A stretch of 5,977 nucleotides of DNA from IMG/VR virus record IMGVR_UViG_2627853869_000001; one strand, given 5' to 3'. Source of the stretch: a virus (lineage: Duplodnaviria > Heunggongvirae > Uroviricota > Caudoviricetes). Numbering within the stretch: position 1 is the stretch's first letter; each line of letters starts with the position of its first letter. This document shows, one piece after another, positions 1-5,977 of the stretch. Position numbers and translations under genes: made by a program. The notes under the pieces were generated by a model. It was not told the origin of the DNA, made no database searches, and saw only the letters and a list, made by a program, of their open reading frames with translations.

Positions 1-1645
1 TTTCCGGTTCCTGTTGCGCTACTGGCTCAGGTTGTTTCGTTTCTGGCTCGTTTTGTTGCGTATTTGGGCTGTTTTGTTCCGCTTTCTGGTCGTTCTGTTC
101 CGATTCTTGCTGGTTCTGGTTTACAGAATCGCGGGTTTCAATCCCCTTTACCCATTTCGGATCATTCGGGTCGCTAATCCCTGCAACAAATTCTCCGCGA
201 GAGGCAGCAAGCAACTTATCGGCGTCAGGCTGGCTGATATTGGCTGCCTGCATAATTTTGTTTACTTCGTCAGCGGTAACTTTTACCGGCTCTGGTTGTG
301 CGGTCGTGTCAGATGCACCAGTATTTTGTTGTGAACCTGAGTACGTGCCGTTTTTACGTGCGAAGTATTCCTCTTTTGTGATTTCCGTAGCTCCCAAGGC
401 TAGTGCTTTTTCCAGACCAGAAAGTTTGTTTGCGCGACCGTATTTTTCGCCATCCTTGTCGGTGAAGAGGAAGTAGAACGGCCCCTCACGCTCTACAGAT
501 GGTTCGACTTCCACTTTGCATTCGGTTTTTTCGTTGCCCGGAATTGCCGTTTCCACTGCATCAGTTTCTGGTACTGGCGACGAGAGAGTATCAGTTGCGC
601 TCTGATTTCTTCCTTCATCTTCAAACACGCCCTTTGTAGTCAGGTATTCAGTAATGTATTTGTTCAGTGCCACAGGGTCTTTGTGAATGTCGATCGGACG
701 TTCACGGACAAGGCCAAAAATAGTCTGGCGGTCGTAGCGAAGGGCATCAGGCTGTTTGCGCATTGATGCCGAGATACGCTTCCAGTCTTCGCGGTCGTTG
801 TCGATAACTTCATTTTTTGCCCAGCGATGGATGCTGCCGTCAATGTTTCCGGCATCCACATCACCAGGCCAGAGAGCGTAGGCCAGTTCGTCATCCAGTG
901 TTTTCCATGTCTGCTTGTATTCGCGATGAATGGCAGCAATGACCGGGCTGATTTTTCCTGTTGAATTTTCACTGTGCTGTTGATTGGTTCTGGCGCGGGC
1001 GAGATCAACAACAGACGTGTATTTTCCGGTTTCCTTGCGTTCACCTTCGCGACGTTTTTTCCAGATGCGCATCTCTGCCTGAATTTCGGGCCATTTGGCA
1101 CCAGGCTTACATTTATGCTTAACCCACCCGATGGCATGCAGCTTAAGCTCCGGATACATGGCGTTAACTTCTGGCATTTTCATCAACGCTTCAACGATAT
1201 GTCCGTCGAATGTTGCCATGTCTTCCTGCAACAATTCCTGTGCGCTAATAACCATATCAACGGTGATGTTTTCACATGTGTCGAACTTAACCATGACAGC
1301 GTTCTGTACTTCAGGGGCCAGCTTGTCAAAAGTGACGTTCATCGGATCGGATTCAGTCTCAACCGGGACAAAGGAAGCAGACTCCTCATCCCAGCGGTTT
1401 TCCTGCATATATTCAGCATCCCAGGAATCGAGGGCAGGGCGGGGTATACCGGGTTTATCCTCGCAGACAAGAAATTTATAAGCGCAGTCCTGAGCAGCCG
1501 GATAATGCTCCAGGAATTGCCAGTGAAATTTTGCGCGGGCGCGACGTTCATCACCGGCTTCAATGGCTGTGGCTACAGCGACGGCACCTTCTTCCTTTAT
1601 TGCCTGTTCGTCCGGAATGGCGGCGCAAATAAAGACTTTACTCAT
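1..1645 (-). CDS. Large prophage early protein, N-terminal 548 codons; partial, C-terminus lies beyond window start. Occupies the position of ydfE in Qin-type and recE (exonuclease VIII) in Rac-type prophages
   Basis: Manual translation of the minus strand from ATG at 1645 (MSKVFICAAIPDEQAIKEEGAVAVATAIEAGDERRARAKFHWQFLEHY...) stays open with no stop through position 1. GAGGT Shine-Dalgarno lies 8 nt upstream of the ATG. The frame ends in the window with a Q/E/N/P-rich low-complexity linker (…DKLLAASRGEFVAGISDPNDPKWVKGIETRDSVNQNQQESEQNDQKAEQNSPNTQQNEPETKQPEPVAQQEPE). The RecE-like assignment rests on gene order and unverified recollection of a similar motif. Confidence 0.6.
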   Translation of the reverse strand, partial: MSKVFICAAIPDEQAIKEEGAVAVATAIEAGDERRARAKFHWQFLEHYPAAQDCAYKFLVCEDKPGIPRPALDSWDAEYMQENRWDEESASFVPVETESDPMNVTFDKLAPEVQNAVMVKFDTCENITVDMVISAQELLQEDMATFDGHIVEALMKMPEVNAMYPELKLHAIGWVKHKCKPGAKWPEIQAEMRIWKKRREGERKETGKYTSVVDLARARTNQQHSENSTGKISPVIAAIHREYKQTWKTLDDELAYALWPGDVDAGNIDGSIHRWAKNEVIDNDREDWKRISASMRKQPDALRYDRQTIFGLVRERPIDIHKDPVALNKYITEYLTTKGVFEDEGRNQSATDTLSSPVPETDAVETAIPGNEKTECKVEVEPSVEREGPFYFLFTDKDGEKYGRANKLSGLEKALALGATEITKEEYFARKNGTYSGSQQNTGASDTTAQPEPVKVTADEVNKIMQAANISQPDADKLLAASRGEFVAGISDPNDPKWVKGIETRDSVNQNQQESEQNDQKAEQNSPNTQQNEPETKQPEPVAQQEPE

Positions 1646-1737
1646 TTTGTTTTACCTCATTACAGATTTAAGGGTGAACAAATCCCTGCCATTGCTGGCA
1701 TATAAGAATGAAACCGGATATTTATTACGGAACTGTT

Positions 1738-1929
1738 TTAAAGACCTGCCGGGATTTCGTTATTATCCTGGTGAATAACTTTATCGACCGGGTAACAGTT
1801 ACCGGGAATTTTCTGTTCGGTTGCTGCAGTCACACACTCCTGCATTGTCCTGTGAACACTGACTGCAATATCAACTGGCTCTCCGGAAACAAGAAAAACT
1901 GTCAGAACAAGTGCAAATGCTGTATTCAT
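1738..1929 (-). CDS. ydfD: YdfD-like small membrane/lysis protein (63 aa) with N-terminal hydrophobic segment
   Basis: ORF MNTAFALVLTVFLVSGEPVDIAVSVHRTMQECVTAATEQKIPGNCYPVDKVIHQDNNEIPAGL. AAAGG lies 9 nt upstream of the ATG. The start codon overlaps the dicB stop as ATGA (translational coupling). Length and position match ydfD of the Qin dicB operon. Confidence 0.75.
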   Translation of the reverse strand: MNTAFALVLTVFLVSGEPVDIAVSVHRTMQECVTAATEQKIPGNCYPVDKVIHQDNNEIPAGL

Positions 1930-2114
1930 TGCCAGCATCCTTTTTGTATCGGACGTAAACGGGCCAGCATTGAAAGAATGCATATTTTATTTAATAGCTC
2001 CCGTTCGTGTTTTCTCTTGTTAATGGCATCTTCAGTAAATACAGGGTTACTGATATTGACACCAATTTCAAAACAACCTTCAGACGTATTAACGTTTGGT
2101 AATAACGTTTCCAT
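1926..2114 (-). CDS. dicB: DicB cell-division inhibitor (62 aa; MinC-interacting small protein)
   Basis: ORF METLLPNVNTSEGCFEIGVNISNPVFTEDAINKRKHERELLNKICILSMLARLRPIQKGCWQ. GAGGA Shine-Dalgarno lies 7 nt upstream of ATG at 2114. Sequence recognised as DicB; it sits immediately downstream of DicF as in Qin. Confidence 0.85.
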   Translation of the reverse strand: METLLPNVNTSEGCFEIGVNISNPVFTEDAINKRKHERELLNKICILSMLARLRPIQKGCWQ

Positions 2115-2283
2115 TATCGCGTCCTCAACAATGAATTTTGTGATGCGGTGCCTGGTGCCTCCAGGTGACGTTAACCAGTTAACAATTAACGCCGGATACA
2201 GAGAATCCACCCATAACACTGTTTTTGGTTTTAACTGTTCCGCGTGCGCTCAGCCGCATTCACCACATCACAAAATTCACTTT

Positions 2284-2326
2284 AAAAAGGGCGGCAGAGC
2301 AGTCACGGAGTAAAACTGATACCGCC
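2284..2326 (-). terminator. Intrinsic terminator hairpin of DicF (GGCGG…CCGCC stem followed by TTTTT)
   Basis: On the minus strand the GGCGG…CCGCC stem (+ coordinates 2290-2326) is followed immediately by a five-T run (+ coordinates 2284-2288). Confidence 0.55.
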
Positions 2327-2341
2327 AAACGTCACCAGAAA
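2284..2341 (-). ncRNA. dicF: DicF small regulatory RNA (ftsZ-targeting sRNA of dicB operon)
   Basis: Minus-strand sequence TTTCTGGTGACGTTTGGCGGTATCAGTTTTACTCCGTGACTGCTCTGCCGCCCTTTTT matches the DicF sRNA as recalled. It has a single-stranded 5' seed and a 3' GC hairpin followed by a T-run. Exact 5' and 3' ends are approximate. Confidence 0.75.
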
Positions 2342-2366
2342 ATTGATAACAGAGGGCGTTGCAGCG

Positions 2367-2403
2367 GGGTTGTCACTTAAGCGTATGGTCAACCTGACAA
2401 CCC
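2367..2403 (-). other. Perfect 9-bp inverted repeat (GGGTTGTCA-N19-TGACAACCC) forming a stem-loop in the untranslated operon RNA just 5' of DicF; candidate RNase processing structure
   Basis: Arms at 2367-2375 and 2395-2403 are exact reverse complements. The element lies about 25 nt upstream of the DicF 5' end on the transcribed strand. Confidence 0.4.
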
Positions 2404-2682
2404 GGTGTCCTCAACGGTGGAAGGAATAACCCCGCCATACTTACCGCCGCGCCATTTCGCGGATTGCCACAACCGGAAGCGCACGGTCGACGAAAATTTA
2501 ACGACAGGCTATCTATGAACCAGCTACCTCGCCGTGCGCTTTCGCGTTATGGTCTGACTTTTCAGGGAAATATCCTTTCAGTAAACTGTCAGTGCCGGAT
2601 GCTCACCCGTGTCCGGCGCACGCACTCCACCTCACCCGTGGAGAACTCCTTAATTACCAACCTTAGCTTCGTTGGTTAGCTA

Positions 2683-2901
2683 TTAACGCGGGTATGTAAT
2701 CATTCTGGCAATGCTTAATGCCGCTGCTTTTTCCAGATTAGTGATATCCTGCTCCAGAGCGGACAGATTTTCAGCCTGCTTAGCCCTGGCTTCATTGGCC
2801 CATTTCAGATCCTGCGCTGCATTAATTTTCTGGTGCATCCACTCATAAAGTTCATCATCGGTATAGTCTGGCGCGATGATGACGGGTTCTCGTTTCTGCA
2901 T
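2683..2901 (-). CDS. ydfC: YdfC-like small protein (72 aa), function unknown
   Basis: ORF MQKREPVIIAPDYTDDELYEWMHQKINAAQDLKWANEARAKQAENLSALEQDITNLEKAAALSIARMITYPR. GAGGA lies 6 nt upstream of the ATG. Length and order match ydfC of the dicB operon. Confidence 0.7.
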   Translation of the reverse strand: MQKREPVIIAPDYTDDELYEWMHQKINAAQDLKWANEARAKQAENLSALEQDITNLEKAAALSIARMITYPR

Positions 2902-2930
2902 ACTGATTCCTCGCGGTGCTGCTTCGCTTA

Positions 2931-3059
2931 TCAGCCGTTAGATTTTGCCGAGCTGGAAAGCGCCTGTTTAAACTCACTGAAGCTGAGAGCTTCTTCGCCT
3001 TCGGCAAGGCCTTCGAAGTATTCTTCGTAAGCCTTTTCCATGATTGTGTCGAAATCCAT
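2931..3059 (-). CDS. ydfB: YdfB-like small acidic protein (42 aa), function unknown
   Basis: ORF MDFDTIMEKAYEEYFEGLAEGEEALSFSEFKQALSSSAKSNG, below the size cutoff of the supplied ORF track. AGGTGAG lies upstream and the start follows the ydfA stop by 1 nt (TGA-T-ATG). Net charge is strongly negative. Confidence 0.65.
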   Translation of the reverse strand: MDFDTIMEKAYEEYFEGLAEGEEALSFSEFKQALSSSAKSNG

Positions 3060-3060
3060 A

Positions 3061-3216
3061 TCACTCACCTGAGTTTCTTTCCAGCCAGCGACGGGCACCA
3101 TTTTCGGTTTTAAACGTTTTGCTTTTGGTATACGTCATTGCGGTGAACGTGCCGTCCTGGTTTGGAAACACGCCGTACACCAGAGATTCGTTGTTGCCAA
3201 GATCGATAGTATCCAT
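3061..3216 (-). CDS. ydfA: YdfA-like small protein (51 aa), first gene of the leftward operon
   Basis: ORF MDTIDLGNNESLVYGVFPNQDGTFTAMTYTKSKTFKTENGARRWLERNSGE. GAGG lies 5 nt upstream of ATG at 3216. The longer track ORF (start 3372) would run into the promoter/operator region, so the short form is preferred. Confidence 0.7.
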   Translation of the reverse strand: MDTIDLGNNESLVYGVFPNQDGTFTAMTYTKSKTFKTENGARRWLERNSGE

Positions 3217-3331
3217 GCTGACCTCATTTCCCCTTAACGCCGGGGTAGCGGAACTGTTTGCGGAGAACACCGTGCGGTGTGTTGATGGAGGTAATTTAGT
3301 TTTCTCATTATTTTTCGTCAAGGTTTTTTGA

Positions 3332-3344
3332 TGAGAAAACTCAA
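3332..3344. promoter_or_regulatory. Operator-like motif TGAGAAAACTCAA (left operator, O_L analogue) in the leftward operon control region
   Basis: This 13-mer is identical to the one at 3868-3880. It is a near-palindrome (TTGAG-N4-CTCAA type) sitting between the repressor stop and ydfA. Candidate sigma70 elements on the minus strand flank it: -35 TTGACG at 3316-3321 with -10 TAAATT at 3293-3298, or a weaker pair at 3377-3382 and 3355-3360. Confidence 0.5.
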
Positions 3345-3408
3345 GTGCTGGCGCAAGATAAAGCCAATACATTGAAATGTAAGGCTTTAAAATTTTGTGA
3401 AGGGATGA

Positions 3409-3816
3409 TTATTGATGCTTGTTGCGTTTGCGAGCCTCTAATAGCTCGGTGAACAGGCGATTAAAATTCTCAACGCGGGCGCGGAGTTCGCTGAGTTGTG
3501 CTTGTTGCTCTGATTTAGGAAGTGCGCGATACAAACGCAGCATCTCTAACTCATCTTCCGATAAGTCTAGGGTACTATCGAGTGAAACAGGGGGAGCTGG
3601 TGTTTTGTCCTCGTCGCCAAACAGTATCCAGGTTGGTGAACATTGCAATACCTCGGCGAGGCGATGCAAATTTTGCCCGCGCGGGGCTGTATGGTCACTT
3701 TCCCATAATGAAATTGATGAGCCAGATACGCCAGCAGCTTTGCTTAAACCGTTTTGACTTAAGCCTACCTGCTTACGTCTTTCTCTAATGCGTTGACCTA
3801 AAGTTTTCTCGTTCAT
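3409..3816 (-). CDS. dicA: DicA-like HTH (XRE/CI-type) prophage repressor, 135 aa
   Basis: ORF MNEKTLGQRIRERRKQVGLSQNGLSKAAGVSGSSISLWESDHTAPRGQNLHRLAEVLQCSPTWILFGDEDK…ENFNRLFTELLEARKRNKHQ, with an N-terminal helix-turn-helix and divergent orientation to a cro-like gene. An in-frame upstream ATG at 3867 would add 17 aa, but the shorter start fits DicA length. No Shine-Dalgarno precedes either start, so the mRNA may be leaderless. Confidence 0.75.
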   Translation of the reverse strand: MNEKTLGQRIRERRKQVGLSQNGLSKAAGVSGSSISLWESDHTAPRGQNLHRLAEVLQCSPTWILFGDEDKTPAPPVSLDSTLDLSEDELEMLRLYRALPKSEQQAQLSELRARVENFNRLFTELLEARKRNKHQ

Positions 3817-3837
3817 ATTTAGATATCTTAATAATCC

Positions 3838-3867
3838 TTGACTTGAGATTCCTTGAGTGATTAGCAT
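3838..3867 (+). promoter_or_regulatory. Candidate rightward promoter (P_R analogue) for the cro-like gene: -35 TTGACT, 18-bp spacer, -10 TAGCAT
   Basis: TTGACT at 3838-3843 and TAGCAT at 3862-3867 sit upstream of the GGAGG RBS (3885-3889) and ATG at 3894. The -10 overlaps the operator motif. Confidence 0.45.
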
Positions 3868-3880
3868 TGAGAAAACTCAA
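3868..3880. promoter_or_regulatory. Operator-like motif TGAGAAAACTCAA (right operator, O_R analogue) in the dicA-dicC intergenic region
   Basis: Identical 13-mer to 3332-3344. Here it is embedded in the palindrome ATTGAG-aaaa-CTCAAT (3866-3881), between the candidate -10 and the RBS of the cro-like gene. Confidence 0.5.
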
Positions 3881-3893
3881 TATTGGAGGTGCG

Positions 3894-4121
3894 ATGTTTA
3901 AATCAGACGTAATTAATTTTTACGGTACGAAAGCCAAAGTAGCGAAAGCTGCTGGCGTTGACCCATCTGCTGTTTCTCAATGGCAAGAGCTAGTTCCTGA
4001 AGGTCGCGCGATGCGTCTACAGGAGGCATCTGGCGGCGAGCTTCTGTATGATCCCAAGGTTTATGACGAATATCGTAAGACGAAGCGGGCGGGGCGGTTG
4101 AACAATGAAAATCACTCCTGA
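3894..4121 (+). CDS. dicC: Cro-like small HTH regulator (DicC/YdaS family), 75 aa
   Basis: ORF MFKSDVINFYGTKAKVAKAAGVDPSAVSQWQELVPEGRAMRLQEASGGELLYDPKVYDEYRKTKRAGRLNNENHS. GGAGG RBS precedes the ATG. It is divergent from the repressor; the family assignment is from recollection of the YdaS/DicC pattern. Confidence 0.7.
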   Translation: MFKSDVINFYGTKAKVAKAAGVDPSAVSQWQELVPEGRAMRLQEASGGELLYDPKVYDEYRKTKRAGRLNNENHS

Positions 4122-4626
4122 ACAGGCTCGTGAGGCTCTGGATGCCTGGATATGTCGACCAGGAATGACACAGGAGCAGGCGACGATATTAATCACTGAA
4201 GCATTCTGGGCTTTGAAAGAGCGCCCGAACATCGATGTTCAGCGTGTCACAGATGAAGGTGGCGCGGTTGATCAGCGAGCGCTTGGCGTTAATCGAGTGA
4301 AGATATTCGAACGCTGGAAGGCTATCGACACCAGGGATAAGCGTGAAAAGTTCACGGCGCTAGTGCCTGCAATTATGGAGGCTATCCGGATTAATGATTT
4401 CAGGTTGTATCGTGAAATTAGTGACGGAAAAAGCATCACGTACATGATCGCCGGGTTAAACAAAGAATATGGCGATGTGGTGGAGTCCGGACTGCTTTTT
4501 GCTGATCCTGCCGTAGTGGATCGTGAAACTGACGAACTTATAGAAAAAGCAATTGCTTTCAAACTTGCGTATCGACAGCAATACCAACAAAAAGCTGGAT
4601 GGAATTATGAGCCTTCTTTTTGCTGA
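4105..4626 (+). CDS. YdaT-family protein (173 aa) in the position of lambda CII; putative regulator
   Basis: ORF MKITPEQAREALDAWICRPGMTQEQATILITEAFWALKERPNIDVQRV…. Its start overlaps the cro-like gene by 17 nt. The gene order repressor / cro-like / ydaT-like matches Rac-type racR-ydaS-ydaT modules. Confidence 0.55.
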   Translation: MKITPEQAREALDAWICRPGMTQEQATILITEAFWALKERPNIDVQRVTDEGGAVDQRALGVNRVKIFERWKAIDTRDKREKFTALVPAIMEAIRINDFRLYREISDGKSITYMIAGLNKEYGDVVESGLLFADPAVVDRETDELIEKAIAFKLAYRQQYQQKAGWNYEPSFC

Positions 4627-5384
4627 ACGCCCACTGGTTATAAACACACAGCTTGCGATGAAGATTGGCTTAAATGAAGCCATTGTGTTGCAGCAGTTGC
4701 ATTACTGGTTGAGAGATACCAATTCCGGCATGGAATGTGATGGTGTTCGCTGGATTTACAACACAACGGAACAATGGCTGGAACAGTTCCCATTCTGGTC
4801 AGAGTCAACGTTAAAGCGCGCGTTTGCAAGTCTGAAAACGCTGGGGCTCTTGCGTTGTGAAAAGCTCAATAAATCAAAGCGCGATATGACCAATTTCTAC
4901 ACGATTAACTATGGGAGCGAGCTTTTAGATGATGGCAAATTGAGCGAATCCATCGGTTCAAAATGCGCCGCTCCATCAGGTCAAAATGACACGATGGAAG
5001 AGGTCAAAATGAAACGCTCCATTGGTTCAAAACGACCCAATGTCATCGGGTCAAAATGGCCCGATGATCCTACAGAGAATACAACAGAGATTACTACAGA
5101 GAATAAAAACACTTTTCGTCCGGAAGCTTCGCAACCGGACCCGCAGACGGCTGAACAGGATTTTTTAATCCGGCACCCTGGCGCAGTTGTGTTTAGTGCG
5201 AAAAAACGCCAGTGGGGTAGCCAGGAGGATCTGGCGTGTGCGCAGTGGATATGGGGGCGGATCGTGGGTCTCTACGAACAGGCCGCCAGTGATGATGGCG
5301 AGATCATGCGACCAAAAGAGCCTAACTGGACTGTCTGGGCCAATGATGTGCGCACAATGCGGATGCTGGATGGCAGAAGCCACA
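4607..5384 (+). pseudogene. Lambda O-like replication initiator gene with internal iterons, 3'-truncated by IS insertion at 5385
   Basis: ORF from ATG 4607: MSLLFAERPLVINTQLAMKIGLNEAIVLQQLHYWLRDTNSGMECDGVRWIYNTTEQWLEQFPFWSESTLKRAFASLKTLGLLRCEK…. It overlaps the ydaT-like stop by 20 nt and contains the iteron array. Beyond 5384 the frame runs into the IS terminal repeat, so the 330-aa track ORF is a chimera. Confidence 0.6.
4951..5066. repeat. Five tandem iteron-like direct repeats (~23-bp period, core GGT(T)CAAAATG with dyad-symmetric ends CATCGG…CCGATG); putative prophage replication origin
   Basis: TCAAAA(T/C)G cores start at 4958, 4981, 5004, 5027 and 5051. Units 4 and 5 are internally palindromic (CATTGG…CCAATG; CATCGGG…CCCGATG). 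The array is followed at 5067-5110 by a moderately AT-rich (about 68%), purine-rich stretch with three (T/A)ACAGAGA(A/T)T repeats. Confidence 0.6.
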
Positions 5385-5424
5385 TGAACCGCTCCGGGTT
5401 TCCTGGAGAGTGTTTTATCTGTGA
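5385..5424. repeat. Right terminal inverted repeat of the IS3-family element
   Basis: The IS terminus sits immediately 3' of the OrfB stop (5427-5429). The exact inner boundary of the repeat is uncertain because the other end is outside the window. Confidence 0.5.
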
Positions 5425-5426
5425 AC

Positions 5427-5977
<551 letters not shown>

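Follow-up and report, generated by a model that had tools for sequence, protein, structure and literature searches.

Introduction

The 5,977 nucleotides (nt) of IMG/VR virus record IMGVR_UViG_2627853869_000001 that are discussed here, referred to throughout as the window, are the immunity-proximal part of a lambdoid prophage, and between positions 1738 and 2341 they carry an intact copy of the known prophage cassette dicF-dicB-ydfD, comprising the small RNA (sRNA) DicF, the cell division inhibitor DicB and the lysis protein YdfD. All three are encoded on the minus strand, with 1738 being the last base of the ydfD stop codon and 2341 the 5' end of DicF. Stated in this way the finding is already known and ordinary, since the cassette is present in most Escherichia coli genomes. 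I am nonetheless highly confident of what it implies, namely that the region forms the distal portion of an early-left (PL-type) operon in a lambdoid E. coli prophage of the Qin/PPompW type, and that it is orthologous to the dicBF operon of E. coli K-12, mechanism included. The features on which the argument turns are the following:

1738-1929, minus strand: ydfD, 63 amino acids (aa), a DUF1482 protein with a hydrophobic N-terminus (PF07358)
1926-1929, minus strand: ATGA, the dicB stop codon overlapping the ydfD start codon (read from the junction; K-12 is annotated with the same 4-nt overlap)
1926-2114, minus strand: dicB, 62 aa (PF05358 and NF049927), with a Shine-Dalgarno sequence GAGGA at 2126-2122
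2130-2281, minus strand: structured leader RNA of about 150 nt (sub-threshold STnc100 match, fold score and covariation)
2289-2341, minus strand: DicF sRNA, 53 nt (Rfam RF00039)

Identity and intactness of the cassette

An initial annotation, made from the letters of the window only, had placed DicF, DicB and YdfD contiguously in this region and described them as apparently intact, and both statements are borne out by profile scores far above their cut-offs on the minus strand, by open reading frames (ORFs) and by a DicF that is the same as in K-12; furthermore, the alignment to reference sequences that it proposed as a check was run against the K-12 prophage Qin and returned orthologues throughout. 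DicF matches RF00039 over model positions 1-52 of 52 with 76.7 bits against a gathering score of 48 (E = 3.4e-16), is identical to K-12 dicF at 53 of 53 nt, and lies between ydfC and dicB of a dicBF-type operon. It has the expected layout of a single-stranded 5' region followed by a stem-loop/terminator with a T-run, the stem-loop pairs all being standard in the Rfam alignment, and as judged from this complete identity its pairing regions are unchanged relative to those of the characterised K-12 DicF.

DicB is covered over residues 1-62 of 62 by both Pfam PF05358 (124.9 bits, cut-off 27) and NCBIfam NF049927 (130 bits, cut-off 100), with the gene being 93.7% identical to K-12 dicB in nucleotides and the protein identical at 54 of 62 aa; identical DNA carries the RefSeq label dicB (WP_000449179.1). 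Mutagenesis of DicB has shown that K2 and the last eight residues tolerate change and that L5A is inactivating (PMC4967827). In the window the N-terminus reads METLLPNVNTSEGCF, so that residue 2 is present and L5 is kept, and of the eight changes relative to K-12, which give E2, N20, H36, L47, P55, I56, Q57 and W61, five fall at tolerant positions (K2 and four of the last eight residues). Glutamate stands at position 2 in 5/6 aligned alleles, that of the window included, and the C-terminal tail departs from K-12 by L55P, M56I, P57Q and A61W. Similarly, YdfD (N-terminus MNTAFALVLTVFLVSG) matches Pfam PF07358 with 88 bits against a cut-off of 25 and is identical to the K-12 protein at 59 of 63 aa (97.4% in nucleotides). 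Neither dicB nor ydfD contains a frameshift or internal stop, and the RefSeq labels dicB and ydfD are found on identical DNA in many genomes.

A side observation concerns the different rates at which the parts of the cassette have changed. DicF is 100% identical (76.7 bits) in three of the loci L006-L009, where DicB has 60-87% and YdfD 47-79% identity, which would place DicF under much tighter constraint or have it exchanged separately; in the dicB locus L009 (STEC435) no DicF match was found at E <= 0.01.

The surrounding operon and its control

The whole dicBF operon is present in the order of K-12 Qin, from the DicA-type repressor and the PL-like promoter through ydfA, ydfB, ydfC and a spacer to dicF, dicB and ydfD. 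The remaining features, in order of position, are:

2-1645, minus strand: 5' part of a RecE-like exonuclease gene (NCBIfam exodeoxyribonuclease VIII, partial match, 148 bits)
1677-1700, minus strand: weak terminator-like hairpin with a T-rich tail (terminator scan)
2342-2682, minus strand: untranslated ydfC-dicF spacer, 341 nt (333/341 nt, or 97.7%, against the 340-nt K-12 spacer)
2683-2901, minus strand: ydfC, 72 aa (215/219 nt to K-12, 1 aa difference)
2931-3059, minus strand: ydfB, 42 aa (128/129 nt to K-12, protein identical; annotated in an identical prophage)
3061-3216, minus strand: ydfA (DUF1391), 51 aa (Pfam PF07151, 95.4 bits; 100% nt identity to K-12)
3293-3344, minus strand: PL-like (sigma-70-like) promoter, with -35 TTGACG at 3321-3316, 17 nt, and -10 TAAATT at 3298-3293 (promoter scan)
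3409-3816, minus strand: DicA-type repressor gene, 135 aa (NCBIfam NF007257 'transcriptional repressor DicA', 239.1 bits, cut-off 101, residues 1-135/135; Pfam HTH_3)

The promoter lies about 950 nt upstream of dicF-dicB-ydfD, and expression of the cassette depends on it. Inverted repeats flank it at 3295-3308 and 3331-3344 (14-nt arms, 93% complementary), and the exact 13-mer TGAGAAAACTCAA at 3332-3344 occurs again at 3868-3880 in the repressor/cro intergenic region, with an inverted copy overlapping the -10 of the promoter; these repeats and 13-mer sites are candidate operators of the DicA-type repressor. The repressor gene itself has only about 60% nucleotide identity to K-12 dicA, with many gaps, and the repressor and promoter region together about 60-67%, which indicates that a different immunity type has here been joined to a near-identical dicBF operon.

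For the ydfC-dicF spacer, the idea of a 330-nt insertion was considered and rejected, the K-12 gap being 340 nt; the spacer is a normal part of the operon and is present in 4326 of the 5426 complete E. coli genomes. No Rfam family was detected in it at E <= 1, and its predicted fold contains a long duplex (...AAGCGCACGG / CCGUGCGCUU...). In K-12, DicF is processed from a polycistron that starts upstream of ydfA, the 190-nt form being produced by RNase III and the 53-nt one by RNase E, and no internal promoter was found (PMC10448788). By arithmetic, the 5' end of the 190-nt precursor would correspond to window position 2478, in the 3' strand of the spacer duplex. At the other end, the hairpin at 1677-1700 is likely to be the 3' end of the ydfABC-dicFB-ydfD transcript, consistent with the 1,608-nt transcript size reported for K-12 (PMC10448788), and it is weak when taken alone because terminator hits equal the shuffle expectation. 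A candidate self-regulation of dicB by DicF was also considered, given a single-sequence fold that pairs the DicF 5' region with dicB codons 2-5 and a 10-bp complementarity with codons 6-9, and was dropped, as roughly 0.5 such matches would be expected by chance over a region of this length.

The leader RNA between dicF and dicB

The 174-nt gap between dicF and dicB is identical to K-12 at 173 of 174 nt (99.4%) and holds a pseudoknotted RNA domain that is supported by covariation. Its helices are H1 (2281-2261 with 2150-2130), P2 (2257-2242), P3 (2193-2185 with 2175-2167) and P4 (2165-2151), and a pseudoknot joins the tail CAGUUAA (2237-2231) to the P3 loop UUAACUG (2182-2176). The window copy folds with a z-score of -4.66 and has a closing helix of about 21 bp. 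A consensus structure calculated with RNAalifold from 22 diverse copies comprises 29 pairs in four helices, in which 97.1% of cells pair (27-42% when the partners are slid as a control), changes on both sides are seen at 11 pairs and in 36 cells, and the covariation score of 0.220 compares with 0.098 in shuffles, with 0/500 shuffles reaching the observed value; helix 2 is uninformative here because it lies inside the search pattern. In addition, the pseudoknot exists in three co-varying versions, each with 7/7 Watson-Crick pairs: CAGUUAA/UUAACUG, AAGGUUG/CAACCUU and UGGUUAU/AUAACCA.

A longer ORF that ends in dicB in phase (97 aa from a GTG start, window 1926-2219, minus strand) runs through this leader, and it fits the 1988 report of Cam et al., as cited in PMC8835842, in which translation of DicB begins at an internal start codon in phase. 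The part of this ORF ahead of dicB overlaps the structured RNA and is probably non-coding. Coding constraint as the cause of leader conservation was rejected for three reasons: length differences in the central part are not multiples of three, the same element precedes unrelated genes, and the substitutions in the helices are compensatory.

The nearest described family is STnc100 (RF02076), which the window leader matches over its full length (model positions 1-206) with 38.7 bits, below the gathering score of 47, and other leader copies with 30.5-43.8 bits; by gathering score the element therefore falls outside STnc100, and it shares the architecture of that family together with covariation. 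Most likely, in my view, the leader helps to control how the message of the toxic gene that follows is processed or translated, possibly through cleavage of the closing helix by RNase III. A weak hint comes from arithmetic on published numbers, by which the 1,146-nt species (PMC10448788) would end in the 3' strand of H1 if it is given the origin used for the 813/814 cut. In the literature, nothing specific was found that describes a dicB/kilR leader or RNase III sites within it.

A search of phage genomes showed that the stretch at about 2130-2294 matches alone in many phages without dicB. In Rac-SA53, Shigella Stx phage 75/02 and phage pPE4 the same element immediately precedes kilR, in the P1-like phages P7 and D6 it precedes tciA/terB, and a Klebsiella phage has it too. 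When viral contigs were scanned with one conserved block of the leader, at least 120 loci were recovered. The first ORF after the leader, with copies counted among the matches listed and the distance to the start codon measured from CACCUGGAGGCACCAGGCACC, the conserved core motif of block 2, was distributed as follows:

DicB: 55 copies, 32 nt
KilR: 11 copies, 37 nt
A protein of about 280 aa: 7 copies, 40-41 nt
TciA/TerB: 3 copies, 40 nt
Several small proteins: a few copies each, 36-66 nt

The small proteins include small membrane or Cys-rich proteins, and among the same matches 49 of the 55 dicB copies, and few of the rest, have DicF immediately upstream. In K-12 Rac (L133, 1731-2003), the verified sRNA KilS is followed by a 175-nt gap holding the same leader, with 1 mismatch to the block-1 pattern, and then by kilR, so that Qin and Rac share a layout of sRNA with terminator, leader and division inhibitor. 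About 27 of the 120 listed copies (such as L100, L111 and L015) have a different arrangement, being followed not by an ORF but by a GC-rich hairpin and T-run of their own (GGCGGTACCAG...CTGGTACCGTCCTTTTT), like a free-standing sRNA; the copies of this type use the pseudoknot pair AAGGUUG/CAACCUU.

It is tempting to suggest, although I hold the proposal to be doubtful and offer it only tentatively, that the leader belongs to a divergent branch of STnc100/PasD and works in cis as a portable control module, which temperate phages would place 32-45 nt before toxic host-takeover genes of unrelated sequence (dicB, kilR, tciA/terB and several genes for small membrane or Cys-rich proteins). Such a module might be gated by RNase III cleavage of the 21-bp closing helix or by the binding of a protein or small ligand, and the conserved unit would be sRNA, terminator, leader and toxin, as in DicF/DicB and KilS/KilR.

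Prophage context and prevalence

The opposite strand carries a P22-Cro-like gene, a YdaT-like gene and an O-like replication gene. Beyond ydfD, the exonuclease gene is next in the operon and is open over all 548 codons that lie in the window; in an identical prophage (strain DA33133) it has a full length of 2,472 nt and is labelled 'exonuclease'. That prophage adjoins ompW and has int, xis, the exonuclease gene and the dicB/ydfD labels. Window positions 1-5384 are 99.9% identical to many genomes. From 5385 onwards (5385-5977), an insertion sequence (IS) of the IS3 family interrupts the O-like replication gene, with the C-terminal 172 aa of its transposase encoded on the minus strand (NCBIfam, 205.7 bits), and the prophage is probably replication-defective. 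The junction between IS and prophage is absent from the 5426 complete E. coli genomes, where the best matches end at 5384, and from species-representative genomes, and it thus appears to be specific to the source strain.

The prevalence of the cassette was assessed by comparing a 701-base stretch (window 1700-2400) with the same 5426 complete genomes. It matches 4650 of them, with 3778 covering at least 80% of the stretch, and genomes with any match have a median of two matching places and a maximum of nine. Identity is 100% in at least 18 listed genomes and at least 99% in 1265 records. The cassette is carried by the isolated temperate phages mEp460, PhiR42_1, HannyBb and vB_EcoS-640R1 and by PPompW prophages of Shiga toxin-producing E. 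coli (STEC). A further match was found at 249916-250152 of the record of Aeromonas phage AP1 (MT713136.1, a 254-kb jumbo-phage record), where 237 nt are 97.9% identical to E. coli dicF and leader; true homology seems a poorer explanation of this than contamination or a chimeric assembly.

Function and selective value

The K-12 DicF is an sRNA that represses by base pairing, its targets including the ftsZ, xylR, pykA and manX mRNAs. The mechanism has been worked out on the K-12 orthologue (PMC10448788, PMC5069750, PMC6832061, PMC8835842), and the functions that the initial annotation had given for the three elements are all in print: division is blocked by DicB acting via MinC on FtsZ and by DicF repressing ftsZ translation (PMC10448788); DicB protects cells by inhibiting an inner-membrane receptor, blocking phages that use ManYZ, with deletion of ydfD or dicF having little effect on this exclusion (PMC6832061); and overexpression of YdfD, which acts on IspG in K-12, lyses cells unless DicB or SulA is co-expressed (PMC8835842).

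Transferred to the window, this literature would give the following sequence of events. In the lysogen, the DicA-type repressor (3409-3816) would keep the promoter at about 3321-3293 off. On derepression, a single transcript would run through ydfA, ydfB, ydfC, the 341-nt spacer, dicF, dicB and ydfD, after which RNase III would cut the spacer duplex and RNase E would trim the product to the 53-nt DicF, whose 3' end would be its own terminator. DicF would then pair with ftsZ and other mRNAs, while transcripts that read through would present the folded, pseudoknotted leader followed by dicB. DicB would bind MinC, block formation of the Z-ring and inhibit ManYZ-dependent entry of phage DNA, and ydfD would most likely be translated by ribosomes finishing dicB, so that the lysis protein would be made only together with the division inhibitor that suppresses it. 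Identity, intactness, layout and conservation in this account come from the present analysis; processing, targets and phenotypes are taken from the K-12 orthologue, and I infer the local repression through the 13-mer and the coupling.

Several points weigh against carrying the K-12 mechanism over to the window in full. This allele and its prophage are known from sequence alone, expression and phenotypes having been established for the K-12 orthologue. The repressor and promoter region is unlike that of K-12, and the inducing signals, the Rem antirepressor included, may not carry over. Scans of the window for promoters and terminators gave no more hits than in shuffled sequence, so these assignments rest on position and K-12 homology. 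With an IS in its replication gene the prophage may be defective, in which case the operon would be only a host-domesticated module. Finally, a Shine-Dalgarno-like GGA upstream of ydfD could allow independent initiation there.

Furthermore, it is worth asking what the cassette is for. In an active phage it could serve lytic development by halting division and reshaping metabolism early, like lambda Kil, with ManYZ exclusion being a by-product, a view that in my opinion could equally prove right or wrong. It draws on the place of the cassette in the early-left operon, with the immunity region on one side and exo/xis/int on the other, on its carriage by the isolated temperate phages named above, and on the Rac-type phages, which have another division inhibitor, KilR, in the same position and behind the same leader RNA; on the other hand, cells are indeed protected against lambda-type infection when a cryptic prophage expresses DicB (PMC6832061). 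As this view concerns selective value, it does not conflict with reading the region as a dicBF orthologue.

The dicB-ydfD overlap and translational coupling

At the minus-strand junction, ...TGG CAA TGA of dicB meets ATG AAT ACA of ydfD to give GGCAATGAATACA, the ATGA reported by the initial annotation being read at 1926-1929 and again in K-12. This is not a new observation, dicB and ydfD having been described in print as lying in one operon 'with partial overlap' (PMC8835842). What can be added is a comparison of six copies, made up of the window, K-12 and four diverged chromosomal loci, in which junctions and proteins were aligned. The 4-nt stop/start overlap is present in 6/6 copies, as ATGA in four (the window and K-12 counted) and as GTGA in two, even though identity among them falls to 60% for DicB and 47% for YdfD, and no separated dicB and ydfD were seen among the copies examined. 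Retention of the overlap despite such divergence supports selection for the arrangement, as translational coupling predicts, and makes coupling between dicB and ydfD plausible. The initial annotation had gone one step further and suggested coupled stoichiometric expression; coupling draws support from the conserved overlap, and 'stoichiometric' is left unsupported.

The overlap may, of course, be incidental gene packing, with ydfD translated from its own ribosome-binding site and the levels of DicB and YdfD unlinked. The GGA already mentioned lies 11-13 nt upstream of the ydfD start, a workable Shine-Dalgarno position, and is invariant in 6/6 copies, which means that ydfD may have its own ribosome-binding site and that independent initiation is possible; four-base overlaps are in any case common in compact phage operons. 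Coupling experiments were not found in PMC8835842 or PMC6832061. Incidental packing nonetheless seems to me unlikely, given that ATGA or GTGA is kept at the protein divergence just described, in genes that stand together in every copy examined, and that suppression of YdfD lysis by DicB (PMC8835842) gives linked synthesis a biological sense.

The weakest alternative is that the cassette is a decaying relic of a defective prophage, non-functional in this strain, which is very improbable because, for all that the O-like replication gene is broken by the IS3-family element at 5385 and the orthologous K-12 operon belongs to a cryptic prophage, Qin, none of the six reading frames is disrupted and nor is DicF (the latter at 53/53 to the functional K-12 copy), the stretch 1700-2400 is shared at the high identities given above, viable phages carry it, the repressor, promoter and operator-like repeats are undamaged, and K-12 Qin is defective too, yet its dicBF operon is functional (PMC10448788, PMC6832061).

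Significance

Taken at face value, the cassette has been correctly annotated as a textbook prophage element and adds no new biology. Its practical value lies in what would be expected of the strain: filamentation and DicB-type exclusion of lambda-like phages on derepression, and a latent lysis gene. The conserved leader RNA could matter more, as a pseudoknotted domain that stands before several unrelated toxic phage genes; it is the only less-described item here and the only one that might repay further work.

Comparison with known systems

The closest relative is the dicBF operon of K-12 Qin (ydfA-ydfB-ydfC-dicF-dicB-ydfD-ydfE), which has the same order, spacing, spacer (340 nt, against 341 nt in the window), 174-nt gap and ATGA overlap, with DicF, YdfA and YdfB being identical, YdfC differing by 1 aa, and DicB and YdfD being 87% and 94% identical, respectively. 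The two differ in that the repressor, promoter and operator of the window belong to another immunity type, that the exonuclease gene is intact in the window whereas its K-12 counterpart ydfE is a pseudogene truncated by IS2, and that the prophage identical to the window adjoins ompW and not the Qin site.

Lambda Kil and DicB are both small division inhibitors encoded in a PL-type operon under the control of the prophage repressor, although there is no sequence relationship between them. Lambda also uses N antitermination, whereas the window is without an N-like gene.

The leader resembles STnc100 (RF02076)/PasD in its closing helix, its P3 hairpin and its P4 hairpin with the GGAGGCACC loop region, which is common to both. 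The described copies of STnc100/PasD come from the late regions of phages, close to Q and downstream of stx2, and have been regarded as free sRNAs that act in trans, with an unknown or hypothetical function and with no mention of dicB or kilR in that literature (PMC12370729; bioRxiv 10.64898/2026.05.13.724894); the element in the window, in contrast, is an internal leader, 32 nt ahead of the dicB start codon.

The kilS-kilR region of K-12 Rac differs from the window in having a division inhibitor, KilR, that is unrelated in sequence to DicB, an sRNA, KilS, that shares only the terminator region with DicF, and no ydfD homologue, with ydaE and racC following instead. In its layout, however, it is alike: an sRNA that carries a terminator is followed by the same leader in a gap of some 175 nt, then by a small division inhibitor and then by an exonuclease gene.

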